This document shows positions 1,180 through 56,594 of a stretch of 63,437 bases of DNA, in pieces. Position numbers and translations under genes: made by a program. Under the pieces are notes generated by a model, which had not been told where the DNA came from, searched no databases, and saw only the letters and a list, made by a program, of their open reading frames with translations. Each line of letters starts with the position of its first letter. The first letter of the stretch is position 1. The DNA is from a virus (lineage: Duplodnaviria; Caudoviricetes): positions 1 through 63,437 of the IMG/VR virus record IMGVR_UViG_3300028925_005942, one strand, 5' to 3'.

Positions 1180-1227
1180 ACTGCAAATATATGTTTTTTT
1201 GTTAATATAATTATTAAATGTTAATAA

Positions 1228-2991
1228 CTAGTAAGGTAGCCTATCTGAATCTATTTTATTAACCAAGTCATCTAAGGGATACTCTCCATTTTCATAGAAC
1301 CTACCCGATGGTCTATGGTAGTTAAACGTAATAGGAGCTCCTGTAGGGATACCTACAAGCTTTTGAAACTTAATCTTCTGCACATGAATATGAGAAGTAG
1401 TGTCTCTAGGGTCTTTAGGGTTAGGTCTATGGACTGTTATAATATTATCAGCCTTATTATACCAGTTAGCCCCTCCAGAAATCCTATATGCCGTTGGAAC
1501 TTCATTATCCATTGTATTACTACCCGCTACACTCCTCATTGTAATAGGATGAGCAACAACCATAAACTTAACATCATTAGCCTTAGTGAACCTTCTAATC
1601 TTGTTAAGAGTGTTGGCTACGTGATTAGCTTCAGATACTCCCGAATAGTCATGGTCTAATTGATTGTAAGGGTCTATTATAACTCCTTTAATCCCTCTAG
1701 TCCTAACAAGGTACTGAAACCTATCCAACACATTATCTAGTTTAAAGTTATCCTCTGGGTATACTGCAAAGAAATGCTTATTAACAAACTTCATTCCCGC
1801 ATCATACTCATTGATATTCATCCTACTGTCAGCATCAATATCAGATGTTGTACCCACATACATCTCAATAAGAGTTTCATACAACTCATTGATTGGATAA
1901 TTCTCTGGAGAAAACACCCCCCACTTCCATCCATAAAGAATAGCTGAGTTAATCATAATCTGAAAGCAGAAAGATGACTTACCGTGTCCTGGTATCCCTG
2001 TAAACACATCAAATTCAGCAGCTCTAAGTGAGTAGTGTCCATCCAACCCTGCATACCCAGTAGTTAACCCTTTCTCTTTTCCATTGTGATATGAATCCCA
2101 TAGCATTTCTTCTACAGAATCAACTCCAAATACTCCTTCAATAGGATAAGGTCTAGCCCCTTCGTAACACTCGTAAAGCTTTTCCTCACTATGCTTAACT
2201 AAAACATCATTCGCATCCTTACAGTCTTCAGGAAAGTCTATAATCCAAACTCTATCTCTACCAAGCCTTCTACTAAGTTCTTCTAGGAGTCTTCTTCCAT
2301 TAGCATCATTGTCTACTGCGATATATATCTTAGTCTTATTCTCAAAGTACTTGTAACAATTATCTAAGTAAGAAAATTTAGCTTCAACATTTTTAGCATT
2401 AGCATTTGGAGCTCCATCAGGTACTGATACACAGAAATCTAACCCTAGAGCATCAAAAGAAAGCTTATCAAATTCTCCCTCTACTATAATAACCTGTTCT
2501 TTCTCTTTAATATCATCTAAACCATAGAAAACCTTTTCCGCACCAGCCACTTGCTTAAAGTTCTTATCTCCATCTCTATACTTAACATTCACACACTCAC
2601 CATCCTTGAAATAATTAAACCTGATAGTGTTTGCTTCTTTCTGTACTTGCGGCATGTACACCTTCTCTTCTGTTATTTTGTTTTTAATAACGACTTCTTG
2701 AGGTATACCTCTACCCTTAAAATACTTAAGCATTTTATCCGATACATCTGACTTATTGTATGCAGGCTTATTATATTTTATATACTTTTCTCTCATTTTT
2801 TTTTCTATTACCTTCCCAGACCACTCACAGTGATGACATACAAACACTCCGTTCTCTGTGTTTATAGACAAACATGGTTCTGTCTTTTTCTTTCTAGAGG
2901 TAGAACATTTAGGGCAGATGGCTTTTATTTCGTGTGTCCATCTACCCTTATATTCTATCCCGTACTCGTATAATTGCTCTTTTGTTATCAT
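1228..2991 (-). CDS. Twinkle/T7 gp4-like DNA primase-helicase
   Basis: Zn finger (CPKC...CHHC), TOPRIM (IVEGEFD, DNDANG, KDAND), Walker A TGIPGHGKS, SF4 motifs IIDPYN and VAHP. Confidence 0.93.
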   Translation of the reverse strand: MITKEQLYEYGIEYKGRWTHEIKAICPKCSTSRKKKTEPCLSINTENGVFVCHHCEWSGKVIEKKMREKYIKYNKPAYNKSDVSDKMLKYFKGRGIPQEVVIKNKITEEKVYMPQVQKEANTIRFNYFKDGECVNVKYRDGDKNFKQVAGAEKVFYGLDDIKEKEQVIIVEGEFDKLSFDALGLDFCVSVPDGAPNANAKNVEAKFSYLDNCYKYFENKTKIYIAVDNDANGRRLLEELSRRLGRDRVWIIDFPEDCKDANDVLVKHSEEKLYECYEGARPYPIEGVFGVDSVEEMLWDSYHNGKEKGLTTGYAGLDGHYSLRAAEFDVFTGIPGHGKSSFCFQIMINSAILYGWKWGVFSPENYPINELYETLIEMYVGTTSDIDADSRMNINEYDAGMKFVNKHFFAVYPEDNFKLDNVLDRFQYLVRTRGIKGVIIDPYNQLDHDYSGVSEANHVANTLNKIRRFTKANDVKFMVVAHPITMRSVAGSNTMDNEVPTAYRISGGANWYNKADNIITVHRPNPKDPRDTTSHIHVQKIKFQKLVGIPTGAPITFNYHRPSGRFYENGEYPLDDLVNKIDSDRLPY

Positions 2992-3689
2992 TCAAACATT
3001 TCTTTATGTTCATTTCCCGATATATTATCAAAATTAACTTCATTCGCTCCAGTTTTCGAAACTATTTCATCCTCCCATCCCTTATTTCTTAGGAATGTAT
3101 CAGGATTTTTTCTATACTGTTTATCAGGTCTATGTAATTTATACTTAGGTATGTAATTCATACAACTTTTCTTATCTTTAGCTGATAGAGAACTCCACAA
3201 TGATAGTGACTTATCTTTCCCTACCCTCTTATCATATCCCTCCCAGAATTCTTCGAATCCTTCAGGGTTGTTAGCTTTCTTTTTATTTGTTTTGGTAGGA
3301 CTTGTCCCACCAGTTTTATCCTTACTCCATCTGATTTTAGCCCACTCTCTTGCTTTTTCTGTTTTTATATCTCTTTTAGCAAGTCTTTTGTTTAGGGAGT
3401 TAGACCAGAAATGTTCTCCATCGGATTCAAATAGCTCAAATTCTTCTATGCAATCCTTGACAAATTCTTTGATTGTATCAGGGTCACTACATGTTCTCTT
3501 GGCTAATACTCCCCATGTGGATTTTTTAGACATAATTAACTTATACCCTTCCTCCATAGATAGAGTTTCTATAATAATCCAATAGAACCCATACCCTTCA
3601 GCCCCATAGACTGAGAGTAGGGTTTCTATCTTCATATCACTAAACGCTATCGTATCATGTGGAAACCAATACGACTTTGTTTTAGCCAT
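2988..3689 (-). CDS. DUF4373/Lin1244-like phage replication initiator
   Basis: YWFPHD...YGAEGYGFYWIIIETL N-domain; C-terminal FEEFWEGY...RKNPDTFLRNKGWEDE; directly upstream of the helicase. Confidence 0.75.
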   Translation of the reverse strand: MAKTKSYWFPHDTIAFSDMKIETLLSVYGAEGYGFYWIIIETLSMEEGYKLIMSKKSTWGVLAKRTCSDPDTIKEFVKDCIEEFELFESDGEHFWSNSLNKRLAKRDIKTEKAREWAKIRWSKDKTGGTSPTKTNKKKANNPEGFEEFWEGYDKRVGKDKSLSLWSSLSAKDKKSCMNYIPKYKLHRPDKQYRKNPDTFLRNKGWEDEIVSKTGANEVNFDNISGNEHKEMFE

Positions 3690-3691
3690 CT

Positions 3692-3958
3692 TTAGAACGG
3701 TAAGTCATCAGCATCAGCACTAGTAGACTCAGCTGGAGCTTTCTTTTCAGACTCTCTCCATTCCGATGCAGCTACTGCAAAATATTTCTTACCCGTCTTA
3801 CTTTCATTCAGCCACATAGCTAAATTCAATTTAACACCATCCTTGTCGTAGAATGTTCCTGTGTAATCAGGGTGTTTTTCAGACTCTTTCTTTTCATTTT
3901 TGAACATCGCTCCCGTGTTCGGTTTGTTTTCGTATGCCATTGTATTTGTTTTTGACAT
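3692..3958 (-). CDS. putative ssDNA-binding protein (DUF736-like)
   Basis: HPDYTG...LAMW motif and acidic DDLPF tail. Confidence 0.65.
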   Translation of the reverse strand: MSKTNTMAYENKPNTGAMFKNEKKESEKHPDYTGTFYDKDGVKLNLAMWLNESKTGKKYFAVAASEWRESEKKAPAESTSADADDLPF

Positions 3959-3968
3959 TATGCTTACT

Positions 3969-4289
3969 CTAATATTGGTTTTCAGCTTCCCCCGTTTTCC
4001 TAATTTTACTATACATCATTTTAACTTCTCTTTTTCCAAATCCTGTGATGTGATATAAAGCAGTAATACCGTTACCACCCCCTCTCATCATCTCTATCAG
4101 TCTTTTGTCCTTCAGAGCCTTCATACCCTGCTGGATAGTATTATGGCCTAAGGGGATGTCTCTTTTTACTTCTCCCTTAGAGAATGTCTCTGAGTGGTAT
4201 GCATACAATAATATATGCACTACCGAGTATGAGACATCAATTCTATCTGATGTTTCTTTTTGGAACTTTCTAAAATATTTTAAATTCAT
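3969..4289 (-). CDS. winged-helix (MarR-like) DNA-binding protein
   Basis: TIQQGMKALKDKRLIE...YHITGFG wHTH pattern. Confidence 0.6.
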   Translation of the reverse strand: MNLKYFRKFQKETSDRIDVSYSVVHILLYAYHSETFSKGEVKRDIPLGHNTIQQGMKALKDKRLIEMMRGGGNGITALYHITGFGKREVKMMYSKIRKTGEAENQY

Positions 4290-4864
4290 GACTCAATATA
4301 AATTCTCTCAGCATCTGTACCTATACAAATTAATCCTTCATATTCATATAAAACATCATTTACTGAATTCCATCCTTCACCATTTTGCTTAATATCTCCC
4401 TTAAGGTAAAGTCTATTGCCTTTAAGTTCAACTCCATCATGTTTCCATAAGATGTTATTAGCACCTTTATAAGATAAAGGAATGACTGTACCTTTAGTTT
4501 TATGTAGGAAGAAGTGAAGGGTTACATAGGTTTTATTTTCAACTCCTATCAAGTCATTCAGTTCTTTGATGATAGTATTAGCATCAGTAGAATAGTCTAA
4601 GATATCATTCACCTTGTTAATAGCGTGAATTACCGTAGCATGAGTTGCAAATCCTCCCATCTCTCTATACTGCTTAGAGATTAATGTTGATGAACCATTA
4701 TATTCCCCATAATAATGAGCATACCAAAATAAGTGATGTCTAGCATCAATTACAGCCCTTACTCTTGTCTTAGAAAATATCTGCTCTAATGTAACATTAA
4801 AGTACTCAGACATATATACCGATAACTGTTGCATCGATACATCTTTTGTTATTGTTTTTTTCAT
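4286..4864 (-). CDS. protein with DnaA C-terminal (domain IV) HTH
   Basis: YFNVTLEQIFSKTRVRAVIDARH...THATVIHAINKV resembles the DnaA domain IV signature (SxxR..ARQ..DHTTVxHA); no AAA+ domain. Confidence 0.75.
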   Translation of the reverse strand: MKKTITKDVSMQQLSVYMSEYFNVTLEQIFSKTRVRAVIDARHHLFWYAHYYGEYNGSSTLISKQYREMGGFATHATVIHAINKVNDILDYSTDANTIIKELNDLIGVENKTYVTLHFFLHKTKGTVIPLSYKGANNILWKHDGVELKGNRLYLKGDIKQNGEGWNSVNDVLYEYEGLICIGTDAERIYIES

Positions 4865-5637
4865 TATAATATTCCTTTAAAATAATACTCATCTATGTTA
4901 CTACTTTTATCTATAAAGAATTCCTTATATCTATTTAATAGTGCGTTATTTTTTAATCTTCCTGCTCCAACGAAATCCTCACTTGCTTGGTAGATAGCTA
5001 ATCGATATGGAGATGCTTTCTCTATAACAACAAACCAAAAGTCAGTTGCTCCAAAACCATCCAAATACCACGCTGCTTGCCTGTCATACCCATACTTCAT
5101 TGAAGACCTTCTAAAGGCATCTAAAGAGCAATCCTGAGTAGTTTTGATGTCAATAAGAATCTTATCTCCATTGTCATCTATAACAATCATATCAGCCTTA
5201 CCCTTACACTTAACACTTCCATTATCCCAAATCCTAACTGATTCTTTATGAGATTTTTCTAGGAATTTACTTGCTATATCATTGCTATAAATAACATCAG
5301 ACATTTGATTGATAGCATTCCATTCAGACACAGAGATGATAGTTTTTCCCTCATTCTCTAATACGAATTCATCCCAGACCTTACCTCTTCTAGTCTTACC
5401 ATCGTATATTGCTATGTCTGAGTCTACCTTTCCAGGCTCTAGTATTGTTGTATGGAATGCCTTACCAAATGTAAGAGCTGGAGAAGACTCTCCCACTCCC
5501 TCAAAATACTCTCTTAGATGTTGAGGAGACTTTCCTAATTTCCCTAACATACTGTTCGTTAGATATTCTCTATCTGCATAGTAAATATCGTCATCAAGAA
5601 ACTTAATCTCTTGATTTAAAATATCCTCCTCACTCAT
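4864..5637 (-). CDS. exonuclease VIII/RecE-like PD-(D/E)XK nuclease (DUF3799)
   Basis: LTNSML...FGKAFH...CKGKAD...DIKTT...YDRQAAWY...VIEK. Confidence 0.85.
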   Translation of the reverse strand: MSEEDILNQEIKFLDDDIYYADREYLTNSMLGKLGKSPQHLREYFEGVGESSPALTFGKAFHTTILEPGKVDSDIAIYDGKTRRGKVWDEFVLENEGKTIISVSEWNAINQMSDVIYSNDIASKFLEKSHKESVRIWDNGSVKCKGKADMIVIDDNGDKILIDIKTTQDCSLDAFRRSSMKYGYDRQAAWYLDGFGATDFWFVVIEKASPYRLAIYQASEDFVGAGRLKNNALLNRYKEFFIDKSSNIDEYYFKGIL

Positions 5638-6234
5638 CTATAAAGGAGGTAGTGTCGCAAGATTAATAGCAGCGCTAAGTTGTTTATGTTGGATTTTAGT
5701 CATTGTGTAGTCGTTCATTCTCTCACTAACTACCCCATCATTACCAGCCTTGATAGAAGTCATCATTAAACCCATAATAGCTTCAGTCATCTTCTTTTTA
5801 GTTGCCTTAGCTGGTTTAGTAACTTCTTTAGGATTAGATGTAGCATCTGCATCCTTTGTATCATCAATCAAAAACATATTTCCGAGAGTGTATTTCTTTG
5901 AATAACTGCTTGATGAACCAAAAGATTGTGCTATATCCATACCCTTACGGTCAGGGTCTATTCCTGCTGATGAAGTAGATGTAATAACCTCTCCTGTCTC
6001 ATCTATCAATGAAGCTTTTGTAGCTACAAATAAATATCCTCCCAACTCATTTGTTTCTTCTGAGAAAAGTAATATTAGTTTATGCTCCTTTAGGTGAGGC
6101 TTAAGAGCCTCAAGGATATCTTCAGAGCTCCTGTACTTATAACCACCAAAGGAATTCATCTGTCCTTTATGAACCTTTAAGTTTGTTTGTATCATGTTTA
6201 ATTTTTCGTGCAATGTCTTAGTTACTTTTGTCAT
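5638..6234 (-). CDS. ERF-family single-strand annealing protein
   Basis: NSFGGYKYRSSEDILEALKP...AQSFGSSSSYSKKYTLGNMFLIDD. Confidence 0.88.
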   Translation of the reverse strand: MTKVTKTLHEKLNMIQTNLKVHKGQMNSFGGYKYRSSEDILEALKPHLKEHKLILLFSEETNELGGYLFVATKASLIDETGEVITSTSSAGIDPDRKGMDIAQSFGSSSSYSKKYTLGNMFLIDDTKDADATSNPKEVTKPAKATKKKMTEAIMGLMMTSIKAGNDGVVSERMNDYTMTKIQHKQLSAAINLATLPPL

Positions 6235-6388
6235 TTCTTAATCTTTTAATTGTTAATTTTAATTGTTTTACTTCTTCTTCTAGAGCCAGTCTTATCGACC
6301 TCTCCTCATCATAATTCATCATCCACACCCTTGTCGACATGGCTAATTGTTCTGACTGCTGAATGAACAGCTCCTTCATTTTTCCCAT
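6218..6388 (-). CDS. hypothetical coiled-coil protein (start moved to MGKMKELF)
   Basis: The promoter at 6412-6419 lies inside the longer ORF call, so ATG at 6388 is preferred. Confidence 0.6.
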   Translation of the reverse strand: MGKMKELFIQQSEQLAMSTRVWMMNYDEERSIRLALEEEVKQLKLTIKRLRNDKSN

Positions 6389-6459
6389 ATTATTTTGTTT
6401 TAAATTGTATGCAAATATACGGCATCTTTTCATATATATTACAATTGTTAATAACTTTT

Positions 6460-6837: not shown

Positions 6838-6840
6838 ATA

Positions 6841-6904
6841 TTATGTTATATTATCTTATCTTATCTCATCTTATAGCATTGCGTTTGCATATGCATATGC
6901 ATAC
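6841..6904 (-). repeat. iteron-like element copy 1
   Basis: Minus strand GTATGCATATGCATATGCAAACGCAATGCTATAAG followed by ATAAG-type pentamers. Confidence 0.8.
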
Positions 6905-12278: not shown

Positions 12279-14988
12279 TTATTCTTTATTAATATGTATT
12301 TCGTTAATCACTTCTTGGATATCTTCCACATCTTCTAGGTCGTTTATAAACTGAAGTAAGTCTACATTGCCTTTTAAACTGTAATTATCTAGAAATCTAT
12401 TGTAGTTATGCATAGATAAGTCTAGTATCATATCTATTAACTCTTGTGTTAATTTTTCTTCCATAATTTATTTATTTGGTAGGACTTGTCCTACGATGAT
12501 AGTTTTCAAATTCTATTTTTAAGGCATTTTCTTCATTATCTGATAGCCTTAGTAATCCTTGTGCGTATAGATTGTATAATTCAGAAATACTAGGGGTGTA
12601 CCCAAATTTTTCTTCATACCTTTTTATTATTGTTTCCATAATTTATTTTTTGGTAGGACTGTCCTACTGGTTAATAAGCTGAGATAGGTCTTGATTGATG
12701 CTCTTCATAATCAATTCCCATTTTATCAGCAAAATGTTTCTTTAGTTCCTCTCCGATACCATCTAAAATGCTATTGTCATCATCACTCACTTCATCTCTT
12801 TTGGTTTCTCTTCTCAATGTATCATTAACTGCAATACTTCCTAGCATACCACCTCCTAAGTAGTTTTGGTAGGCAGACATTTTCTCTCCCTCAAATCCAA
12901 ATGGAGTTAAGTCAATTTCAATACCACCACCTCTTGATGATAGTTTTTCCCTAATAATTTTAAATTCCATGATTATTGTTTTAAATTAATAATATTCTCT
13001 GTATTTGCGTCATGTATTTCCCAATCAAATAACATAATCATATCTGATAGAGTTAATGACTTAAATTCTTCTTCCTCAAGTCCTCCGTTATCTATTTCGT
13101 GAAAGCTATATAAATCACCTTCAATTTCTTTTAAATCGTCATAGATAATATGCCCTTCAGTACCTCCTTTATAATCGTGTAGTTGATTATCCCATAATTT
13201 ATATTTCTTTTTCATAGTTTTATTATCTTGATATTTCAATTATAGCTTCAGGGTATTCCTCACAAGCCTTTAGGTACGTCTCTACAAATTCTAAGAAATG
13301 TTCGTACATTCCCCAACCATTAGGGGAGTTGAACTGCTTAAAGTGTTCAGGTCTTAGTTTTAAATCCGTTAGCCCTAGTTTAAGTGGAGCTATTATATCT
13401 TTAGCCTTATCCCACTCTGACTCATCAGGTCTCCATAATGCCTTATATAAATCGCATTCATCAGCCATCTTAGTTAGATTATGAGTAGTCCCTCCATCAT
13501 AAATGCACTCAGATTCTTCTTTCCAAGTTTCTCCTTTATTGTAGCTTGTCCATTTCTGAACCCTTAATTCTATATATAAACCCATAATTATTATTTTAAA
13601 TTAAATTCTCCCAAATCATTTCCCCTTCTTTTTCAGTCTCAATCCCATCTTTATATATTTCATCTGATAGGCTATACTTAGTGCTTAGGAAAAAATCTAC
13701 TATCCTTTGCGTTTCTGTATTAGATATACAACCATAAGAAAAAATAGTTTTATCAGCATAACTGATGTACCATATCATTTGTATTGGAGGAAATAATTTA
13801 CCGCTTCCTTTTTGTCCGTGTAATTTAGTTCGGAACGATAATTTAAACCCCTCTTCACTGATAAGGGTATTATCCTGGTAATCTATCCAATTACAATTTT
13901 CTAACTTTACTATAAACTCATTCATATCTTAAAAATTTTAATTAATACTATTTTGGTAGGACTTGTCCTACGACTATTGACCACCAAACCATCCACCTTG
14001 ACAATGTTTCTGCATTGGTCTGCCTGTTCCTACATTGTACTGGGTACTAGCGCATGATGATAGTAATAGGATTATAATTATTAATGTCAGGTAGGCTGTC
14101 CCTACAACTGATGCTGGGTTATTTTCTGCTATTTTTTTCATTATCTTTGTATTTTTAGTCCGTGATTTTCCATATACTCTATCCAACTCATCAACTCATC
14201 AGTATTTTCAAATGTATTTAAACATTCATTGATACTCATATCTGTTGGAAATGGATTTTTATTCTCGTGTCTAAAGTATTGGTATGTATATTCGCCTACC
14301 TTTTCTGCTAAATAATAAGGGTACTGAACAAAACTTCTCACAATACTTGCTCTAATTTCTTTTCCATGTCCAAAGGCGATACTTCTTTTGTCGCACCACT
14401 TTTGTTTTCCTTGTGTACTTCTAATAATTGTAGTCATAATTCTTTTTTAATTTATTAGTATTTTAATTGTTATGATACTGAATGACATTGCTGTTACCAT
14501 CCACCATAGGAATGGTCGTTTACATTTAGTTGCGTCATTACTCCAAAAGTTTACATAATCTTTCATTAATTCTTTTTTCATCTTATTATCTTTAAATTAT
14601 TTCTCGTAGGACTGTCCTACTCGTTTCTTAAAAATTCTTTATCTAATTCCATCTGCATTTTAAAATTAGTATTCTTATTCATTCGACTACTCATAGGGCA
14701 ACTAGAGGTCTCTTGTGTATAGTACTCGGCTCTAGTATTGATTTCATGCACAAGTCCTTCAGGTGTCTTAATAACAAGATATAGCACCCCTCCAATTCTA
14801 TAATGATGTAAATTTCCCTTGCCTCGATTTTTTAGTTTCTTTCCGTTCCATTCCTCGACTATCCAACCCTTATTTTGAGGGATATACGGTGATGATAGTA
14901 TTTTAGTCTTCATTACTTTAGGAGGGCTTATTAATCCTTCAAGGATAAGTAACCTACGGAGTGATTTTTTAAATTCAGATTTTTTCAT
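12279..14988 (-). CDS. cluster of small early ORFs (12279-12464, 12472-12639, 12671-12970, 12973-13239, 13223-13585, 13596-13925, 13974-14186, 14141-14437, 14447-14581, 14617-14988)
   Basis: ORF track plus two manually read ORFs; 13974 ORF has a lipoprotein-like LLSSC motif. Confidence 0.65.
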
Positions 14989-15033
14989 TGCCTTATCTTT
15001 AAATTATTTTGGTAGGACTGTCCTACTAAATTT

Positions 15034-15098
15034 GTAGCCATAAAAGGAATCGAACCTTTAGCACCTATTATTTCAGCACCTTACCAAGTTAACGGCTA
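15034..15098 (-). ncRNA. degenerate tRNA-like element
   Basis: Acceptor-like stem TAGCCGT/ATGGCTA and T-arm AAAGG-TTCGATT-CCTTT; D and anticodon arms weak and short. Confidence 0.4.
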
Positions 15099-15149
15099 GT
15101 TATAAGAGGAATTTCAACCCCTTAGATTATTTGGTTTATCTAGTACTAC

Positions 15150-15605
15150 TTATGAAGCCGATACCTCTAGCATGATACTTTGTGCTAGTACTTTACCTAA
15201 TTGTTGTACTTCTTTTTGTGTCAAATCACAATTTTCGCTAGATAGTAACTCAACAATTTTGTCGAATGTACTTTTTTGACTACTTTTTGAAACATAATCG
15301 ACTAGAGAATATACCTTTGTCGTTCTATCGAATGCTAATTTTAAAGGGTTCAAATTCTCATCTTTAGTTGATACCCTCTTAATTGTCTTATTTAGCGTGT
15401 TAATTCGTTGGTCTTTACCACCTTGTTTGCTAGTAGTGTAGATGAAATTTGCCGTATCTACTAGTACTTTGCCATTCTCATCAGTTAAATTTGATAGGAC
15501 TTGTCCTACTAAACTAGCATTGTGCTTTGTCGCTAGTGTTAAAGTTGATACTAATTGTGCTACATTTGATTTAGGCGTAACTTTCCCATTGATTAATTTG
15601 CTCAT
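15150..15605 (-). CDS. hypothetical protein, first gene of the early leftward operon
   Basis: 151-aa ORF downstream of a -7-like element at 15654-15661. Confidence 0.7.
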   Translation of the reverse strand: MSKLINGKVTPKSNVAQLVSTLTLATKHNASLVGQVLSNLTDENGKVLVDTANFIYTTSKQGGKDQRINTLNKTIKRVSTKDENLNPLKLAFDRTTKVYSLVDYVSKSSQKSTFDKIVELLSSENCDLTQKEVQQLGKVLAQSIMLEVSAS

Positions 15606-15653
15606 AATTTTTGTTTTTTTGTTTTAGTTAAATTCGCTTTGTTAATTATAATG

Positions 15654-15661
15654 CAAGTATA
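15654..15661 (-). promoter_or_regulatory. putative early promoter -7 element (TATACTTG)
   Basis: One mismatch to Bacteroidota TAnnTTTG; about 50 nt upstream of ATG 15605. Confidence 0.5.
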
Positions 15662-15680
15662 CAGGTTTAAAATTAAGTGG

Positions 15681-16012
15681 TAACTAACTGATAATGAGAG
15701 GGTTAAAGCTAACTGCTTGATAATCAAGTACTTATAAGTATATGATAGTGAACCACTTAGCTATTTAGTAAAGTGTAAACATCGATTTTGGAAAATATAT
15801 GGTGTCATGTTGTAACTGCTTGATACTCAATAGGTTACAGAGGTAAAAAAGGTAATGATTATTTCAATTATTGCTAACTACTTGATAACCAATGATATAT
15901 AAGGTGTTGATTATCAATGCTTTAGCTATTTGTCAGTAACTTATTGACATTCTTATTTAGAATGACTATAAATAAGCAATTACTTTGTAAAGTACTGATT
16001 ATCAGGTGGTTA
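15681..16012. repeat. six 25-bp imperfect palindromes TAA-N4-YTGATnnTCAR-N4-TTA
   Basis: 15681-15705, 15710-15734, 15813-15837, 15875-15899, 15900-15924, 15988-16012. Confidence 0.8.
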
Positions 16013-16518
16013 CAGAGGTAAATTAAGTAATTAGCTAGATAAGACTAGGTATAGACTAGGTCTGTAACCCTAGTAGATGAGTTTTAAGGCGTTAACTAGT
16101 GTTTTTGATACTGATATACTGTAAAGAAGTTAGAAGGCTTTAGAAGTCCTTAAATGGATTATTTAGGGTGTGCCTAGAGTATATACTAATATATACTAGA
16201 ATTCCTAATTTTGTGCCAACATTTTATACAATAGTTTTCAACAAAAATAGAAGGGGGATTATCCCTCTCATCTTATGGTCTACCTTAAATAAAGTTTAGT
16301 CTTGTCTAAACATTAGTTTGTATAAACCGAAATCTAAAATTAGTTAAGGCTTAATTATAGATAAGGATTGCCTGAATATGGAAACAACCCCACCCCCCTA
16401 ATTAATTTCGTTTAGGTAAAAGGATTTGTATGGTGCTGTATAGTATATTATCCCACCCCTAAGTATAACTGGAATCTTTAATTAAATTCTCCACTGGTAT
16501 GTGTACTTTTTAACCAAG

Positions 16519-16652
16519 GTATGCATATGCATATGCAAGTGCATTGCTATAAGAATCAATATAGATATATATAGATATATATTATTATTATATAATACTA
16601 TTATATATTACTATATACTTTATATATTAATCTTATATATTAATATATAATA
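16519..16652 (+). repeat. iteron-like element copy 2 followed by an almost pure AT tract
   Basis: GTATGCATATGCATATGCAAGTGCATTGCTATAAG then about 95 nt of TA-rich sequence. Confidence 0.8.
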
Positions 16653-16809
16653 GGAATACAATGAATTAAAAATAAGTTACTGTAAGTGCTGTGTATATTA
16701 TTAGGGGTACCCATATTCACGTGAAGGGTACTGGCTCTGCGTGTAAGGGTGTAACGATATCTCCTTGGTATCAATACCCCCCAGTCTTGTGTGGAGCTCT
16801 TAGATGCAT

Positions 16810-17197: not shown

Positions 17198-17479
17198 TTA
17201 CTTTCTGGTTCCTGTTCCAGATGATTTCCTGTTCTTAGGGTAGTTATGACTAGACCCTTTCTTTCTTCCTCCCTCTCCTGCTTTACCTCTGTTTGATTTA
17301 ACTGTTCTACAGACACAATTCGATGGAGCGTTGTTTCTTGGATTACCATCCTTATGATGAACCTCCTTACCAGCAGGGCATTTCTTCTTTCTTGCGGCAG
17401 CATTTCTGGCAGCTCTATCTTTCTTTGCTTTTGTGGAGCTTTGAAATTTCTTATATTCGTCTTTATAATCTCTAGCCAT
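17198..17479 (-). CDS. small basic HNH-like protein
   Basis: RDYKDEY...EVHHKDGNPRNNAPSNC...NR HNH pattern. Confidence 0.75.
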   Translation of the reverse strand: MARDYKDEYKKFQSSTKAKKDRAARNAAARKKKCPAGKEVHHKDGNPRNNAPSNCVCRTVKSNRGKAGEGGRKKGSSHNYPKNRKSSGTGTRK

Positions 17480-17568: not shown

Positions 17569-17631
17569 CAAATATAGGTAAATAGTTTTTATTAACAAAC
17601 TAATTTCTTTTAAAATAATTTACTACATTTG
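17569..17631. promoter_or_regulatory. divergent Bacteroidota-type promoters
   Basis: TATATTTG on minus strand (17569-17576), TACATTTG on plus strand (17624-17631), TTATTAACA at 17589-17597. Confidence 0.7.
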
Positions 17632-17655: not shown

Positions 17656-17910
17656 ATGTCAGAAGAAAAGAAAGGGCCTAATATGATATCTAAAGCTTGG
17701 AATCTAACTAAGGCTGTAACCAAATATGCAGCATACGGATTCAAGACAGTACCCGTATCAGTATACGAAACTAGAATGAAGGAATGTGATAAGTGTGAGC
17801 ATCTAATAAAAGATAAAGGAGCATGCGGAATGTGCGGATGTGACGTAGAACTAAAGGGTCAATGGTCAACTGAGAAGTGTCCAGATAACAGATGGAAAGC
17901 TACAGTATAA
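17656..17910 (+). CDS. Cys-rich protein (DUF6171-like)
   Basis: RMKECDKCEH...CGMCGC...KCPDNRW; ATG 17656 preferred because it lies downstream of the promoter. Confidence 0.65.
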   Translation: MSEEKKGPNMISKAWNLTKAVTKYAAYGFKTVPVSVYETRMKECDKCEHLIKDKGACGMCGCDVELKGQWSTEKCPDNRWKATV

Positions 17911-18185
17911 TGGAGATACCAACAGGACTAATAAGAAAAGTTATAGTTATGGCAGGAGACCGTGATATAACATACGTGAGAGGAAACTCAATAGCTAAGG
18001 GAGCAATTAAAATTGTAGACATCACCTTTGACCAAGCATATTCAATGCAATACAATAAACCTAGATACAATATCTACGTACAAGAGATAAACTCTGAGTT
18101 TACTAGACTATGGAAGTCAATACCAGCAGACCACTGCTTACCAGAATATGAATTAGGCATCGAAACAATTAAAGACAATGATTAA
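17892..18185 (+). CDS. hypothetical protein
   Basis: ORF track, overlaps both neighbours. Confidence 0.6.
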   Translation: MESYSIMEIPTGLIRKVIVMAGDRDITYVRGNSIAKGAIKIVDITFDQAYSMQYNKPRYNIYVQEINSEFTRLWKSIPADHCLPEYELGIETIKDND

Positions 18186-18762
18186 AGGAGTGTTCGGAAG
18201 TATGGTTTTAATAGAGCTAGAGAAAGAAACAGAAGATTCTAAAGTATTAGAGAATGGAACTGAGATATGGTTAGATACAGAGATAGATAGACTATGGCAT
18301 GCAAGGCAAAGCGGTATCGTTAGGTTTGCAGCTACCACATCTACCAAGCGAGTAGAAGATAACATCCAATTAAAAGATGGAGATAAGGTTTACTTCCACC
18401 ACTTTGTGATTAATAGTAAGATTGAATTAGATGGAGAGAAGTTCTACAAGGCAGATGTCAATCAGATATATGCTAAAGAAGATGAGAATGGGAATATCGT
18501 TATGCTCCAGGATTATATCTTTGTGGAGCCAGTCACAAACAGTGACCGCATCAAAACAGATTCAGGTATTACAATAGCACAAGAAGAAGAAATAGAGAAT
18601 GAAGGTATCGTTAGACATATCAATCAGTTCACGGAGAAAGTAATCGAAGTAGCCGTAGGCGATAGAATAGTATTTACAAAGCACTCCAATTACAAAATGA
18701 ATGTGGGAGATAAGAAGTACTATAGAATGAGAGACTACGATACCCTTGCGGTAATAGGATAA
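18178..18762 (+). CDS. tandem GroES-like co-chaperonin
   Basis: Two Cpn10-like halves: ...SGIV...LKDGDKVYF and DYIFVEP...TDSGI...GIV...VAVGDRIVF...YYRMRDYDTLAV. Confidence 0.75.
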   Translation: MIKGVFGSMVLIELEKETEDSKVLENGTEIWLDTEIDRLWHARQSGIVRFAATTSTKRVEDNIQLKDGDKVYFHHFVINSKIELDGEKFYKADVNQIYAKEDENGNIVMLQDYIFVEPVTNSDRIKTDSGITIAQEEEIENEGIVRHINQFTEKVIEVAVGDRIVFTKHSNYKMNVGDKKYYRMRDYDTLAVIG

Positions 18763-18764
18763 AC

Positions 18765-19064
18765 ATGGAAGAGAAGACAGAAATACAAATATACCTAGAG
18801 GAAACTTCGGCATCTCTACTAAGAGCAGCTAAGGCAGGAATAAAAACGCTTATAGCTGAGGTGTCAAGACCTATAGCTGATGATGTTCCAGATGAGAAGC
18901 GTAAGTCAGCCTTAGACTCCAAGAAGAAAGCTTTTATGGATGCACAAGAAATGATGTTAGCTTTAGCTGTACTAGATAGAAGTCTAAAGGGAGAGGTAGA
19001 AGTAGAAGATGACTTAACCGACAGACACTTTAAAAGAGGTGCTGCTGAAAAATTCGCTAAATAA
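18765..19064 (+). CDS. possible terminase small subunit
   Basis: Helical protein upstream of TerL; KKAFMDA...AEKFAK. Confidence 0.4.
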   Translation: MEEKTEIQIYLEETSASLLRAAKAGIKTLIAEVSRPIADDVPDEKRKSALDSKKKAFMDAQEMMLALAVLDRSLKGEVEVEDDLTDRHFKRGAAEKFAK

Positions 19065-19066
19065 TT

Positions 19067-19324
19067 ATGGAAGAGATGGAGAAATATAAAATGCAACAAG
19101 AGATATTAGAGGATACCATGTACTGGTCATACCTACTGATAACAAAACAAATGACTTTTGATGAGTTGTTAGATTCAGATGAAGACTTTGGTTTAATATA
19201 TAATCCAGATGACGAAGACTCTAATTTCGATGAGGCTATTGACACTCTTCTTGACTTTTTCATATACAGGGAAGAGTATGAAAAATGCCAAGACTTGGTT
19301 GACGTGAGAAAATTCTACAAATAA
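19067..19324 (+). CDS. hypothetical acidic protein
   Basis: ORF track; EEYEKC motif. Confidence 0.6.
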   Translation: MEEMEKYKMQQEILEDTMYWSYLLITKQMTFDELLDSDEDFGLIYNPDDEDSNFDEAIDTLLDFFIYREEYEKCQDLVDVRKFYK

Positions 19325-19346
19325 AAAAGGGGCTATCGCCCCTTTT
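19325..19346 (+). terminator. rho-independent terminator (possibly bidirectional)
   Basis: AAAAGGGGC-TATC-GCCCCTTTT. Confidence 0.8.
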
Positions 19347-26270: not shown

Positions 26271-26305
26271 AGAGAGGGAGGATTTGTCTCCTCCCTTTCT
26301 TTTTT
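26271..26305 (+). terminator. rho-independent terminator after MCP
   Basis: AGAGAGGGAGGA-loop-TCCTCCCTTTCT followed by a T-run. Confidence 0.8.
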
Positions 26306-27177: not shown

Positions 27178-27210
27178 AGAGGGGGTATGTTTATTCATAT
27201 CCCCTTTTTT
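27178..27210 (+). terminator. rho-independent terminator
   Basis: AGGGGGTATG-loop-CATATCCCCT followed by a T-run. Confidence 0.75.
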
Positions 27211-27258
27211 ATATAGATAAATTTCACTATATTTGTATGATTAAAAATTATATAAATT

Positions 27259-32935: not shown

Positions 32936-32984
32936 GTTTATTGGAAGGAATTCATTATATTTGTAATAATTATACACATAAAAC

Positions 32985-48700: not shown

Positions 48701-51700
48701 AGAGAGATATTATTAATGCTAAGTTTAACTTAACAAAACCTAAGGAAAATGCTACTGTAAGTGAAAAGGTAGAGTGGGATAATAACACCTCTAAAGAAAT
48801 AGCTGAGAATAAAGAAATTTTTAATGACCTTTTACACGATAAAACTGTTCCTTTAACATTAAGGTCTAAGGTTTTAATGAGAGAGTTTGGGTTGAAATTA
48901 GGGGTAAATGGAGATACTGATGATAATAAATTCAAAAGAAATAAAAAAGCTAAAGCGCTTGTAACTACAGAAGTTAAGACAATATTCAATGGTGCTAATT
49001 TTGATGTTATAAAGCTTAATGAAAATGGAGAAGTATTAGATGTCGCTAGATTTAAAAACTCTACAGATGCAAATACATTCGCTCAAACTACAGTAAAGAA
49101 CATCTCTGACAACATAGCTAGATTTAATTACAACAATGAAATGTCTCTTGACAATAAGGTTGAGATTGTAGATTATTTAAAAAATGAATTAGGTTCTTCT
49201 CTTAATGAGGTTACAGAAATACTAAATACTACTACACCTACCGAGAGAACTCATAATCAAAATATATTAGTGGAGGCTTTCAAGAGTAAGGTTCAGGAGG
49301 TTTCAGACCTTAATCAACTGAAAATTAAAGAAGAAGCCACGGAAAGTCTTAAAACCAAAGGAGAAGAGGTTACTGAGCAGGCGTTAGAAAATGAGATTAT
49401 TAAGTTAAGGGAATTAAAATCCAAACAGGATGAAGTTATTCTAAAAGGAAGAGTAAAGAAAGAAGGAGAGCAAGAAATACAAGGAAAACAAAAAGCTGAT
49501 AATCAATTACTTAGAAACATAGAGATAGCTCTTAGTAAAGATGGTGATAATCCTATATATGCTACTGAAGAAAGTATATCCTCAATTAATAAAGAGAATC
49601 TAACAGACCATCAGAAAGAAGCTTTAATTGATATTGATAAATCTATAAAAGCATTTAAGAGTTTAGGTCTTGACGTGTATATCCATACTTCTAACAAAGA
49701 ATACATGAAGAGCTCTGGAGAAGCAATAGAGGGGGTTAACATACAAGGACATAGAAACACAAAGACAGGAGATATTCACATGAACATGTCTCACTTAGAT
49801 AAATTAACTACGGCTCATGAAGTTGGTCATCACTTTGGAGAGTTACTTAAAAAAGCTAATCCAGAAAAATATAAGATTGTTGAGGAGGGGGTTTATAAAT
49901 TAATTAGTGAGAACCCAGAGTTCGCTGAGGTTTTAGATTACATTAAGTCAAAAGACGCAGAAGGTAATGACATATATAAAGATATTAGTGAAAAAAAGAA
50001 TGAAGCTTTAGCTGAATATATCGCTAAACTCCAAAAAGGAGACTACACTGTAGAGACTCAGAATAAATTTATTAACGGAGCTAAAATCCAGCTTAATAAA
50101 ATCATGGAAACTCTGAAAATAGATTATAAATTTGAAACTAATAACGAAGTATTAACGTTTTTAGATGGAATAACTAAAAAGATTGACAAAGGAGAGGATA
50201 TTACTAAGAAGGATTTAGGAGTGGGGAAAGAAAAGACTGAGTTTTCCGAACTTCTTACTAAAACTAAAAATGAAAATCCTGATGCATATTGGAGTGTAGG
50301 AGAGGTTAGTCTTGAAGAGGTTAAAAAAGGAACTCTTATAAAAACTGAAGGAGGTCAGGCTATTGTTAAAGCTGATGGAGATATTGTTGGTTTATTTAAG
50401 ACTCCAGGAACTACAGAAAAAGGAGTTGCTGGTAAGTTATTAGATAAAGCTGTTGAGGCTGGAGGAACTAAATTAGATAATTTTGACAATCATTTAACTC
50501 CTATATACGAGAAGGCTGGATTTAGAGTTGTCTCTAGGATGAAATTTAATGAAGAATATGCTCCAGAAGGATGGAATAAAGAAAAGCATGGTACACCAGA
50601 TGTTGTTGCTATGGTTTATGACCCTGCTAAAAAGTTAAAAATAGAAGAGAAGTCTTTCACGGATTACGATAAGGCAATGTCTTATAGAGATTCGCAGATA
50701 AAAGGGGAGGCAATTCAACCAAGAGTATCTAAAGAAAGAGGAAGAGTATTTACTGAAATAGATAATATAATATCTAAAACCAAGAAGAGGTTAACTGAAG
50801 ATGTTAATCCTGAGACTCTAGAGAATAATGCTATATCGTATCTTCAAGAAAGTAAATGGTATGCAGAAGCTACTGATAAGGAGAGAGAGATTGCAGTTGT
50901 AGAGGTTAGAAGTAATCTAGCTATAAAAGAAAAGAAATCTCCTAGTGTAAATAAAGTTTTAGGAAATCCTAAAGAAAATACTGTTGTAATGACAGAGAAG
51001 GTAGCCCTGAAAGAGCAGCTTAAATCTGAAGCAAAGGGAGCTAAAGGAGCTGAAGGGTATATTAAAGAAATAAATACTAAACTTATTGATTATATTAAAG
51101 AATCAGACTTAAAAGATTCTTCTATAGGTAAATCCTTACTTAAGAAAGTAGCTTCTGTTACTAGTGAGAAGGGGTTTGACAATGTTGTTGATGCTTTAGA
51201 GGTAGCTGTAGAGAGACAAACAAGAAGAGATTTAATTGGTAATGTTAGAATTCTAAAGGAAAAAGTAAGAAAGAAGCTTAACAAGGGGGATTATACTAAT
51301 CAATCAGATATAATTAAGGATTTATTAGAAGCTCCATCTCATAAGGTAAAGGATAATGCTATTCTTGGAGAATTAGTCGTTAAGTTAGAGGAATTAAACA
51401 GGAGTAATGTAGCATTGGTTGAACCTAAAAAGATAGAAGAATTAAATAAATCAATATCTGAATTAGTTGCTAAGTCTGAGAAGTCTATACCAACCCAAGA
51501 TTCTTTAGGGGAGTTAGGTGTTGACATCAAGACTAGACTTAAAGGCGAGTTGAAATCAGAATCTACGGAGGAAATTGATACCGTTAAGGGATTGCGTAGT
51601 GATATCTTGCGATTTGAGAGGAATTTAGAGGAATTAAACATAGCAGGTAAACTTTCAGAAGGTCAGTATGAACAATATACTAAGGAATTGAATGAGTTTG

Positions 51701-54453: not shown

Positions 54454-54507
54454 TAGAACTTGTAATAAAAAAACACTATATTTGTAACACATAAATAATA
54501 AAAAACC

Positions 54508-54783
54508 ATGGCAGATAAACACGATGAATTAGCATTAGGAATGGCTAAACAATTAGTACTAACAGACGCAGATGTAATTATCAACAGACAAGTGTATTAT
54601 ATTGTTGCGGTTACTGATACAGTTTTAACTGGTATAACAATGAATACAGACGCAGCTGGAACTGGTGAGACTATAACTGGCGTTCTAAACGGAAAGACTA
54701 TTGTAGCGGGAAGTCAATTCCCTTTATCAATATCAGCAGCAACAGTTACATCTGGTGAGTGCATTATGTATAGCAAAGTTTAA
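54508..54783 (+). CDS. small beta-rich structural protein
   Basis: ORF with its own promoter at 54477. Confidence 0.55.
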   Translation: MADKHDELALGMAKQLVLTDADVIINRQVYYIVAVTDTVLTGITMNTDAAGTGETITGVLNGKTIVAGSQFPLSISAATVTSGECIMYSKV

Positions 54784-54840
54784 TGCGTTTGCATATGCAT
54801 ATGCATTGCTATAAGATAACATAAGATAACATAAGATAAC
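54783..54840 (+). repeat. iteron-like element copy 3
   Basis: ATGCGTTTGCATATGCATATGCATTGCT followed by (ATAAGATAAC)x3. Confidence 0.85.
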
Positions 54841-54848
54841 ACTATATT

Positions 54849-55538
54849 ATGAAATTAGGAATAAGATTAGGACATCCTAAAGTATCATCAGGATTTTCAC
54901 CAACAGACGCTTCAGACTTATCTTTATGGTATCAGAATGGGGTTGGAGTAACTTCTCGTCAATGGGCGGATTCTTCTGGAAATAATAATACAGCAGACGC
55001 TCCTACAGGGAATGAGCCTACACCAGCAGAAGGAGGTTTTGATTTTGAAAACGACAGTAGCACTACTATTGATTACTTGGACTTTTCTTCATTTGATTTA
55101 ACAGGGGCATTCAGTATGTTTTGGGTAATCAAAATGGAGTCTTACGATAATCAAAACACGCTATTTAGCTCAAACAACTCAAATTTTATTGAACAGCAAT
55201 CAGCCGCTCAAATAAGAATGAAATGTAAAGGAAGTACAACTATATTAGCGTATGGAGGCCCTAATAACTTTTCTACTGGTAGTAAGTTTTTGATGACTGT
55301 AAATAGAGATTCCTCAGGAAATATTTCCACCTATAAAGATGGGGTTTTATTAACTCAGTCTGGTTCTTCAGGAAACCCAAATACAAGCACTCTTACAATA
55401 GATACGCTTGGAGTTAGAGATGATACCGATAGAGCATTTGATGGGATAATGTATGAGTTATTAGTGTATGACTCAGAAAAGACGGGAAGCGAATTAACTA
55501 GTCTTCATAATTATTTAACAACTAAATTTTCTCTGTAA
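54849..55538 (+). CDS. ConA/LamG-like domain virion protein
   Basis: LSLWY...WADSSGNNN...FDGIMYELLVYD...YLTTKF. Confidence 0.7.
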   Translation: MKLGIRLGHPKVSSGFSPTDASDLSLWYQNGVGVTSRQWADSSGNNNTADAPTGNEPTPAEGGFDFENDSSTTIDYLDFSSFDLTGAFSMFWVIKMESYDNQNTLFSSNNSNFIEQQSAAQIRMKCKGSTTILAYGGPNNFSTGSKFLMTVNRDSSGNISTYKDGVLLTQSGSSGNPNTSTLTIDTLGVRDDTDRAFDGIMYELLVYDSEKTGSELTSLHNYLTTKFSL

Positions 55539-56035
55539 TGAGGTATTTTTTACATAACATTGTCAGCCATTTTGGTTTTGATACATTCCACGACTTTACA
55601 ACATCTATGATACACTTCCATCTTTTAAAAGTTACTGCTCCAGTTGGAGTTTGTCTTGGCTTAATGTCTAGTATGTTGGGCTTTGCTGATGCGACATCAT
55701 TAGCCTTCTTTGTAATGGTTTTATTTGAGTTAATCTCAGGTGTTTCTGCCTCAGTATTTGAAGGTAAAAAGATAGAAAGCAGGAAGTTTTCTAGATTTGG
55801 TTTTAAATTATTGACGTGGTTAGTGCTAATGGGAGTGTTAAATTCCTTTAAAAGCCAATATGATTCAGGAGTATTAGGATGGTTGATGAGTACCATGGCT
55901 TCTAGTGTTGTAGGGTATATATTATTTGAATATGTTTTATCAATTGTAGAGAATTTAGAAAGAATTACTGGAAAATCCATTCCATTAAAGAAATTTTTAT
56001 TAGATTTGTTTGATAAATTCATAAACAAAAACTAA
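55538..56035 (+). CDS. holin
   Basis: Several TM helices, SGV.AS...IESRKF, SIVENL; directly upstream of the endolysin. Confidence 0.75.
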   Translation: MRYFLHNIVSHFGFDTFHDFTTSMIHFHLLKVTAPVGVCLGLMSSMLGFADATSLAFFVMVLFELISGVSASVFEGKKIESRKFSRFGFKLLTWLVLMGVLNSFKSQYDSGVLGWLMSTMASSVVGYILFEYVLSIVENLERITGKSIPLKKFLLDLFDKFINKN

Positions 56036-56526
56036 TGAACCGAGAATTAAAGTACCTTGTTATACATTGTACTGCAACACCAGCTGGCAGAGAAGTAACA
56101 GAACAAGACATCAAAGAGTGGCATATGGCAGAGCCACCAAAAGGAAGGGGATGGTCTAAAGTAGGTTACTCCGACTTAATCCATTTAGATGGCACTATGA
56201 CTAACCTAACACCATTCAATCAAGATGGTAGAGTTGACTATTGGGAACTTACTTATGGTTCTTCAGGTATTAATTCAGTATCAAGACATATTGTATACTC
56301 AGGAGGAACATCTAAAGATGGCTATAACGCTAAAGATACAAGAACAAAAGAGCAGACCAAGACAATGGATGCTTATGTACTCTACATGATTAGAAGACAC
56401 CCTGATATTCAAGTAGCAGGTCATAATCAATTTAAAAAGAAGTCATGTCCATCATTCTGTACGGTAGATTACTGCAAATCAATTGGAGTCCCAGGAAAGA
56501 ATATATTCAAAGGGGAACACAAGTAA
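56035..56526 (+). CDS. endolysin, N-acetylmuramoyl-L-alanine amidase (T7 lysozyme-like)
   Basis: LVIHCTAT, RGWSKVGY, GHNQF..KSCPSF zinc amidase motifs. Confidence 0.92.
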   Translation: MNRELKYLVIHCTATPAGREVTEQDIKEWHMAEPPKGRGWSKVGYSDLIHLDGTMTNLTPFNQDGRVDYWELTYGSSGINSVSRHIVYSGGTSKDGYNAKDTRTKEQTKTMDAYVLYMIRRHPDIQVAGHNQFKKKSCPSFCTVDYCKSIGVPGKNIFKGEHK

Positions 56527-56594
56527 AGTTATAAACAAATCCAATTACTATCATTAATTATTAGTATTATTGCATAACAATTAAAAGTTATACA

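Follow-up and report, generated by a model that had tools for sequence, protein, structure and literature searches.

We analysed the IMG/VR virus record IMGVR_UViG_3300028925_005942 (Caudoviricetes), which we call the window at its full length of 63,437 bases, with respect to four promoters that carry a DnaA-box-like element and to a phage gene for a stand-alone DnaA domain-IV protein. The window has a completeness rating of 95% and a G+C content of ~34%, and its genes are arranged in three strand blocks. Its terminase is 35-39% identical to the terminases of Flavobacterium, Cellulophaga and Maribacter phages, and no near-identical phage records of the window were found. About 30 of the ~80 open reading frames (ORFs) were scanned with Pfam or PHROGs. 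At each of the four promoters the box, (G)TTAT(T/A)AACA, is located 26-27 nucleotides (nt) upstream of the -7 octamer TAnnTTTG of the host primary sigma factor. An earlier reading made from the letters of the window (the sequence-only reading) had placed all four sites at these coordinates and in this orientation, and we could confirm both (Table 1). All four promoters precede predicted genes of DNA metabolism (replication, recombination and repair). The genes behind promoter 2 are read as a single operon because of their tight spacing, and 3' of the promoter 3 operon there is a terminator-like hairpin followed by the late promoter of the terminase gene.

The 9-mer TTATWAACA alone was not enriched in the window. 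We observed 9 matches compared to 4.9 +/- 2.2 expected, and 7 out of 100 shuffles had at least 9. The remaining five copies of the 9-mer are all within coding sequence and have no octamer 26-27 nt away. The composite of box, N26/27 and octamer was found three times in its exact form and four times if one octamer mismatch was allowed. For this composite a separate null was generated with order-1 and order-3 Markov simulations (1000 each), which gave means of 0.008 (exact) and 0.099 (relaxed) for order 1 and of 0.010 and 0.126 for order 3. None of the 1000 simulations of either order reached the observed counts. Thus the 9-mer by itself occurs at background frequency, whereas the combination of box, spacing and octamer is far above chance, and as it is also kept in the relatives described below the promoter class and its conserved spacing are real.

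Table 1. Box promoters of the window and the genes behind them (aa: amino acids)
Feature	Position	Strand	Remarks
Box 1, GTTATTAACA	1219..1228 (9-mer 1219-1227)	-	G is the last base of the primase-helicase gene stop codon; kept in relative L001
-7 octamer of promoter 1, TATATTTG	1184..1191	-	27 nt downstream of box 1
Box 2, GTTATTAACA	6446..6455 (9-mer 6446-6454)	-	orthologous sites in G001 and G002
-7 octamer of promoter 2, TATATTTG	6412..6419	-	26 nt downstream of box 2
Box 3, TTATTAACA	17589..17597	+	preceded by T, not G; between divergent promoters; orthologues in G001 (28588) and G002 (3007)
-7 octamer of promoter 3, TACATTTG	17624..17631	+	26 nt downstream of box 3
Leftward octamer TATATTTG before the HNH gene (17198..17479)	17569..17576	-	12 nt from box 3
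Box 4, GTTATAAACA	56528..56537 (9-mer TTATAAACA at 56529-56537)	+	A at position 5
Variant octamer of promoter 4, TATTATTG	56565..56572	+	27 nt downstream of box 4; one mismatch to TAnnTTTG
Further box of the same family, GTTTTCAACA	16234..16243	+	variant common at host mraZ promoters; in 1-kb non-coding region; no octamer at 26-27 nt
Operon of promoter 1	312..1179	-	168-aa protein (phrog_13596, unknown function) and RusA-like resolvase (312..680)
Recombination/replication operon of promoter 2	1228..6389	-	first member a small ORF; also a 106-aa protein
ERF recombinase	5638..6234	-	promoter 2 operon
PD-(D/E)XK nuclease	4864..5637	-	promoter 2 operon
DnaA domain-IV protein	4286..4864	-	promoter 2 operon
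SSB-like protein	3692..3958	-	promoter 2 operon
Lin1244_N replication initiation protein	2988..3689	-	promoter 2 operon
Toprim-DnaB primase-helicase	1228..2991	-	promoter 2 operon
Operon of promoter 3	17656..19324	+	DUF6171 protein, 97-aa protein, GroES-like protein (18178..18762), 99-aa and 85-aa proteins
Operon of promoter 4	56595..58564	+	DNA repair exonuclease (phrog_704, E 1e-63), 76-aa and 204-aa proteins of unknown function

The octamer matches TAnnTTTG exactly at three of the four box promoters and with one mismatch at the other. AG precedes three of the four boxes, which extends the motif to aGTTATTAACAa. The TTG of the usual -33 site lies ~19-21 nt upstream of the -7 octamer. At this distance a TTG was found at none of the four box promoters, and site 2 has one at 22 nt. 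The six late promoters of the structural genes (19382, 23755, 27228, 32956, 42615 and 54477) have cacTATATTTGta in common and lack the box, as the sequence-only reading had also reported. Canonical TTWTNCACA boxes were not enriched in the window (4 compared to 7.4 expected). As box 3 is so close to the leftward octamer, it covers the upstream region of the HNH-gene promoter as well. In the relatives G001 and G002 the rightward distance of 26 nt is kept and the leftward distance is 9 nt, so the latter is not conserved. In one marine metatranscriptome run we encountered six identical short contigs within the genes behind promoters 1 and 2; these are strandless, startless and possibly derived from DNA and thus provide no evidence of promoter use.

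Using the primase-helicase as a query we obtained 80 loci, five of them close (94, 78, 76, 67 and 66% identity) and 75 distant. All five close contigs carry the box 26-27 nt from a TAnnTTTG-like octamer. Across the window and these five relatives the distance between TTATWAACA and an exact octamer was 26 nt in eight cases, 27 nt in two and 15 and 40 nt in one case each. For the first 82 loci (0.96 Mb) the distances peaked at 26 nt (four times) and 27 nt (once), with no other distance observed more than twice. We also compared two sets of three orthologous promoters: in both sets 27 of 27 box positions were identical and the octamers agreed at 24/24 and 22/24 positions, compared to only 43/78 and 42/78 for the spacers and 22/36 and 20/36 for the 12 nt upstream. 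An invariant box at an invariant spacing amid drifting spacers is the footprint of a functional site. Position 6 of the box is A at all 13 box sites of this phage clade. For the 75 distant loci a position-specific k-mer scan upstream of the octamers returned redundant orthologous promoters only and no common box. A scan of viral contigs with the pattern GTTATTAACA-N26/27-TAnnTTTG gave at least 120 loci. The matches listed were mostly chance occurrences inside genes, and ~20 that resemble true promoters are located in AT-rich intergenic DNA before a gene start in unrelated Bacteroidota-like phages.

The product of 4286..4864 (192 aa) matches PF08299 (Bac_DnaA_C) across residues 18-85 with 33.5 bits (cut-off 31.5, E 4.2e-08). 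In its AlphaFold2 (AF2) model (pLDDT 87.3) domain IV comprises residues ~8-106 and is followed by a beta-rich domain at residues 127-190. The comparison with E. coli domain IV on DNA (1j1v_A) gave an E value of 2.9e-4, a target TM of 0.89 and a root-mean-square deviation of 1.5 A over 98 columns. Both the family match and the predicted fold thus bear out the stand-alone domain-IV protein of the sequence-only reading. The AAA+ domain III (PF00308) and the N-terminal domains were found neither among the Pfam matches of the product nor in the model, so it is not a full-length DnaA. For the C-terminal beta-rich domain we detected no significant structural match, only weak and non-significant Tudor- or chromo-like ones. 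This domain is conserved, with invariant W140, H142, G149, Y153, W165, Y173, E174 and C180, and may be the partner-binding part of the protein. Within domain IV the phage protein keeps the equivalents of R399, H434, T436 and H439 and is changed at R432, P423 (to T), D433 (to T, N or S) and T435 (to A). It has an HATV helix and shares 30-35% identity with Flavobacteriia DnaA C-termini. All relatives with coverage of the region (G001, G002, G003 and G005) have an orthologue, at 29-73% identity, and H75, A76 and V78 of the recognition helix are invariant among these orthologues. A word-based protein search returned only two close homologues; the profile of the five orthologues detected weaker syntenic homologues in 25 of the 75 distant primase-related loci. 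In three unrelated phage loci (L171, L119 and L154) a domain-IV-like gene adjoins a box promoter. PF08299 genes are also found in the phages G013 (98% complete) and G015, and in the latter a box promoter directly drives one.

The box matches the DnaA consensus TTWTNCACA at eight of nine positions, with A and not C at position 6. The resemblance with one mismatch that had been noted from the letters therefore holds, and the strict consensus is not reached by the phage boxes. To compare the element with its host counterparts we used a sample of 32 mraZ promoter loci, picked through the MraZ family and not through the motif. There the element reads TTATTAACA, TTATCAACA or TTTTCAACA, with variation confined to positions 3 and 5, the degenerate positions of the DnaA consensus. 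Two mraZ promoters carry canonical TTATCCACA or TGTGGATAA at that place instead. The DnaA-type box directly abuts the GTGG repeat array of MraZ (L392-L416, L384 and L387), so the division-cluster promoters of Bacteroidia seem to combine MraZ and DnaA-type sites. Box and octamer are 28, 38-40 or 47 nt apart at these promoters, which we read as steps of about one helical turn. We also considered a dimer site with the 4-1-4 palindrome GTTAnTAAC and rejected this, as the host variants GTTTTCAAC and GTTATCAAC are non-palindromic.

We then studied the spacing in 201 Bacteroidia genomes across 12-42 nt upstream of TAnnTTTG, presupposing no distance and using a reversed control. For AGTTATTAACA we observed 51 matches compared to 29 in the control. 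In 27 of the 51 cases the distance was 25-28 nt (4, 7, 7 and 9 per distance; binomial p 9e-12), and every other distance occurred at most three times. If the unpublished genome G397 (matches at 28 and 38 nt) is removed, 26 of 49 matches remain at 25-28 nt. The canonical GTTATCCACA showed 27 matches in the same genomes and 31 in the control, with 10 of the 27 at 25-28 nt (p 0.0013). A-type boxes, that is those with A at position 6, and canonical boxes are hence interchangeable in placement: they have the same 25-28 nt peak, the same site at mraZ and stand side by side in G002.

A further host scan with one genome per species and the pattern AAGTTATTAACA-N26/27-TAnnTTTG gave at least 120 loci. 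Bacteroidota account for 58 of the 80 record titles listed, with the phylum assigned by us for a few family names. We scanned 72 downstream proteins and found, among the matches listed, MraZ in seven cases, the PHP domain of Pol III alpha in six (five with the exonuclease domain), ParA-type proteins in five, the large subunit of ribonucleotide reductase (RNR) in four and DnaX in two. SSB, MutS and SMC were encountered once each, as read from their N-termini only. This gene set overlaps the classes that DnaA regulates elsewhere (RNR, replisome and division). In all five host genomes with the architecture that we checked, the sole PF08299 protein is the full-length DnaA. In the Flavobacterium sp. 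G006 (L344; ~1214160 and 1214930-1214970) two porin-like beta-barrel genes have inverted boxes 38-39 nt upstream of TAAATTTG, one of them with three tandem boxes (TTATCAACA, TTATTAACA and TTATCAACA).

The list of base-contacting DnaA residues was taken from excerpts of PMC5043019, which give 399, 423, 432-435 and 438-439 for E. coli and describe residue 435 as Thr in most lineages. The recognition helix of Flavobacteriia DnaA reads DHATVLHA compared to DHTTVLHA in E. coli and thus has Ala at the equivalent of Thr435. At the mraZ promoters we observed an A-type box in 13 of 13 Ala435 genomes, in G102 with a different arrangement, and in one of seven Ser/Thr435 genomes (Fisher 1.8e-4, kinship ignored). 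For this count 12 of the 32 loci were left out as they have no mraZ ORF call, and L384 and L387 were included. The seven Ser/Thr435 genomes comprise one with TTATCAACA, two with canonical boxes and four with nothing recognisable. For the promoter matches at 25-28 nt, Ala435 (DHATVLHA) was found in all 20 genomes with an A-type box. The nine genomes with a canonical box at this distance split into five with Ser/Thr435 and four with Ala435 (Fisher 0.001 versus A-type, kinship again ignored). The base rate of Ala435 in a random sample was 13/20. G385, which has no PF08299 match, and G397 were left out of the covariation counts.

With moderate confidence we favour a reading in which the four sites are activator-type promoters with a Bacteroidia form of the DnaA box, host DnaA is the upstream activator and the phage protein a modulator. 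The box would occupy the -33 position, with 26-27 nt between its 3' end and the -7 octamer downstream. Given the usual position of the octamer this should correspond to roughly -40 to -48, and the fixed spacing together with the absent -33 site fits an activator-dependent promoter of a class II-like type. In this form, TTWTNAACA, the A at position 6 would go with the Ala in the recognition helix of Bacteroidia DnaA. Host DnaA would bind the box and help RNA polymerase, activating rather than repressing, as at the host RNR, Pol III alpha, clamp loader, ParA and MraZ promoters, and the replication, recombination and repair operons of the phage would thereby read the DnaA state of the host and take their timing from it. 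The sequence-only reading had proposed a middle-gene regulon here, and this timing class is a putative one. Host DnaA is the simplest binder, as the architecture occurs in genomes whose only PF08299 protein is DnaA. Host replication and division genes have the box arrangement as well, and it is therefore probable that these phage operons are tied to the host replication initiator. We expect the phage protein to bind the same boxes, as it shares the HATV helix and its gene belongs to a box-driven operon. Without ATPase and oligomerisation domains it would probably act as a modulator at these boxes, perhaps by competing with DnaA (as feedback or by blocking host DnaA sites) or by standing in for it, and it might also serve the phage origin.

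A more general version of this is quite possible, and we put it forward only tentatively. Bacteroidia DnaA with Ala435 would read the shifted box TTWTNAACA and, from ~44 bp upstream of the start, would be a class-II-like activator of a replication, segregation and division regulon (RNR, Pol III alpha, DnaX, SSB, ParA and MraZ). Phages would place this box upstream of their own replication operons, which would then be timed by the host initiator, and would also encode mimics that consist of domain IV only, have the same recognition helix and take control of DnaA-bound sites or switch them off.

Several observations weigh against the role of DnaA in this reading. Among the 72 downstream host proteins there were also four transketolases, three GcvP and three 2-oxoglutarate (2OG) oxygenases, none of them replication targets, and the porin-like targets with inverted boxes have no link to replication either. 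In bulk, 301 genomes of the phylum, which also included lineages with TTGACT-type promoters, showed 42 copies of TTATTAACA-N26/27-octamer compared to ~35 in the control. With 3-11 copies of AGTTATTAACA per host genome and 4-17 in the control, the box alone was not enriched. The lack of bulk enrichment means that exact sites are few per genome (~0.1-0.25 exact host copies). On the phage side, we found zero copies of GTTATTAACA in the 25 loci with a homologue of the domain-IV protein (0.32 Mb) and zero in the other 50 (0.57 Mb), so the domain-IV gene is more widespread than the box. The covariation figures ignore phylogeny, and Ala435 may mark a single clade and reflect few independent events. 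Two genomes depart from the correlation: G009 has Ser435 with an exact A-type box promoter at parA, and G042 has Ser435 with TTATCAACA upstream of mraZ. The dnaA promoters of three Flavobacteriia (L388, L390 and L391) carry canonical TT(A/G)TTCACA, which suggests that C at position 6 is used by their DnaA proteins as well. In these three loci the box is followed by (T/A)ATTTG and located ~100 nt upstream of dnaA, in L390 downstream of an octamer, and in Ala435 genomes this looks like autoregulation through a C-type box. Finally, we located no host origin in which A-type boxes could be tested for clustering. Perfect TTATCCACA was neither clustered nor enriched in three genomes, and there were no box clusters around dnaA in 23 loci; according to excerpts of PMC4755523, oriC of Bacteroidetes is commonly far from dnaA.

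Some of these points would also be explained by a host DNA-binding protein other than DnaA that reads aGTTWTYAACAa and activates from a helically phased site, in which case the DnaA likeness and the link to residue 435 would be due to shared ancestry. We regard this as unlikely, though it is the alternative that survives best. Such a factor would account for the mixed host targets (transketolase, GcvP, 2OG oxygenase and porin-like genes) and for boxes at 26-28, 38-40 and 47 nt in both orientations, and the neglect of phylogeny in the covariation figures is in its favour. It would also suit the tandem arrangements: in five host genomes we counted 23 tandem A-type boxes versus 9 in the control, compared to 3 versus 11 for tandem canonical boxes. 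However, canonical DnaA boxes have the same spacing peak and replace the A-type box at two mraZ promoters, the variation is confined to the degenerate positions of the DnaA box, one changed base goes with one base-contacting residue, and no candidate protein was identified. It is the spacing peak of the canonical boxes and the covariation with residue 435 that lead us to prefer host DnaA over another host factor.

The sequence-only reading had paired the promoter class with the phage domain-IV protein. If this protein were the dedicated activator of the four promoters and host DnaA played no part, one would expect the location of its gene in a box-driven operon, the orthologues in all relatives covering the region, the invariant H75/A76/V78 at identities down to 29% and the domain-IV-like genes next to box promoters in L171, L119 and L154. 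The co-location can be explained by both belonging to replication modules, and if an activator is encoded in the operon that it controls, its initial expression has to come from elsewhere. The pairing was not supported, as the architecture also occurs at host core genes in genomes with full-length DnaA only (5/5). The jumbo-phage fragment G011 (27% complete) has 13 boxes versus 4 in the control and at least five promoters with 26-nt spacing, and we found no PF08299 match in its 84 kb, which argues against the phage protein as the dedicated activator. A second jumbo-phage fragment, G014 (72 kb, 32% complete; L352-L355), contains 16 copies of GTTATTAACA versus 0 in the control, 14 of them on one strand, and likewise gave no PF08299 match in the available 32% of the genome. 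Together with the 25 boxless homologue loci this makes a dedicated phage activator improbable.

The position of the box recalls UP elements. Those of E. coli have proximal and distal subsites at comparable positions, and an element at ~-40 to -48 with a second class one helical turn upstream would match these if the box were touched by the alpha C-terminal domain of the host RNA polymerase. Boxes at strongly expressed genes such as those of the porin-like proteins would fit as well. But a sequence conserved at 10 of 10 positions with a fixed G and C is unlike the AT tracts of UP elements, and canonical DnaA boxes at the same position, covariation with a DnaA residue and the rarity of exact copies (~0.1-0.25 per genome) render this explanation very improbable. 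Chance occurrence of the four sites in AT-rich intergenic DNA is already refuted: the 9-mer alone may not be enriched in the window, but none of the 2x1000 simulations reached the composite count, box and spacing are kept while the spacers diverge and the hosts show the same spacing peak.

DnaA is established as a transcription factor in a few model bacteria, and several known systems can be compared to the arrangement proposed here. At the middle promoters of T4 the MotA box upstream replaces the usual element and works with the host downstream element, so there too a phage gene class is defined by an upstream box and a host downstream element. Whereas the MotA box is recognised by a phage activator acting with sigma that AsiA has remodelled, the box studied here is also found at host promoters and can thus be read by a host protein. 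Class II promoters of the CRP/FNR type in Bacteroidota likewise have an activator site at a fixed distance from TAnnTTTG in place of the -33 element; here the site is an asymmetric 9-10-mer of DnaA-box type and not a dimer palindrome. DnaA domain IV in complex with its box (PDB 1j1v and 3pvp) can be superposed on the first 100 residues of the phage protein, which lacks domains I-III and has the extra C-terminal beta-rich domain. In lambda the DnaA boxes are located downstream of the promoter and no DnaA-like protein is known to be encoded, whereas the present phage has upstream boxes at four promoters as well as a gene for a domain-IV protein. What lambda pR/ori-lambda would share with the window is the use of host DnaA by a phage for transcription needed in its own replication, and a contact of DnaA with RNA polymerase's beta subunit has been reported for lambda (PMC8203912, excerpts). 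The same excerpts describe the regulation of RNR, replisome and division genes by DnaA, which can activate by stabilising RNA polymerase, and DnaA boxes in such promoters (E. coli nrdAB; RNR, dnaN and ftsZ/ftsL of B. subtilis and Caulobacter). Compared to these, the box described here has A at position 6, a fixed distance of 25-28 nt to the Bacteroidota octamer and no -33 element, and the pattern spans a bacterial class and its phages.

The review PMC8203912 contains zero occurrences of "Bacteroid*". At the level of listings and passages, the literature on DnaA boxes of Bacteroidetes and Bacteroides, on TAnnTTTG phage promoters and on DnaA boxes in phage transcription yielded no description of the box variant or the promoter class, nor of a Bacteroidota DnaA box or regulon. 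Origin finders for Bacteroidota now assume E. coli boxes (PMC4755523, excerpts). If the preferred reading is true, a universally conserved initiator would have changed its specificity through one residue paired with one base, and the regulons and origins of DnaA could be predicted in gut Bacteroidales and marine Flavobacteriia. It would also provide a mechanism that couples phage replication genes to the replication state of the host and a candidate function for the stand-alone domain-IV proteins that are common in replication modules of Bacteroidota phages. The box could further be of use as a compact and portable activator site in the engineering of Bacteroidota promoters.

Other elements were observed in the window and in related phages. 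The 1034-nt non-coding stretch at 15606-16639 contains repeats of the TAACTGCTTGATAATCA family in both orientations, with very AT-rich palindromes at 16560-16660, and looks like a replication origin judging by these features. The homologous region of G002 (1-900) has the same iterons and, within 400 nt, two perfect canonical TGTGGATAA boxes, one TTATTAACA and one TTATGAACA. The palindrome GCATATGCATATGCA occurs three times in the window (6886-6901, 16522-16537 and 54790-54805) compared to 0 expected and is absent from G001 and G002. Each copy is followed by (T)GCA(A)TGCTATAAGA and short AT-rich repeats (ATAAGATAAC three times at 54810-54845). In the G014 fragment the boxes are part of a repeat, cTTATTTGcaaaaaGTTATTAACAat, in which they lie shortly downstream of an octamer-like TTATTTG, and two copies abut tRNA-like 3' ends on the opposite strand. 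Here the box is used in a different way.

A perfect hairpin, TAGGAC-TT-GTCCTA, followed by CAAAA precedes small early genes at 12480-12493, 13957-13970 and 15495-15508, with one-base-loop variants at 12640-12670, 14438-14450 and 15020-15040. Four matching hairpins, CGGACTTGTCCG, are found in G001, one of them located between a tandem pair of boxes and an octamer. The hairpin may serve the early genes as an operator or as an RNA element. For 14989-15149 a tRNA was ruled out, as ARAGORN found none and Rfam gave no matches. Among the late promoters, the one at 32956 has a canonical DnaA box, TTATACACA, at 32970-32978, 6 nt downstream of its -7 octamer, and a protein bound there would block transcription from this promoter. 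GC-rich hairpins followed by T runs are located just upstream of late promoters at 19325-19345, 26275-26300 and 27180-27215, and thus the late operons seem to be separate terminator-promoter units.

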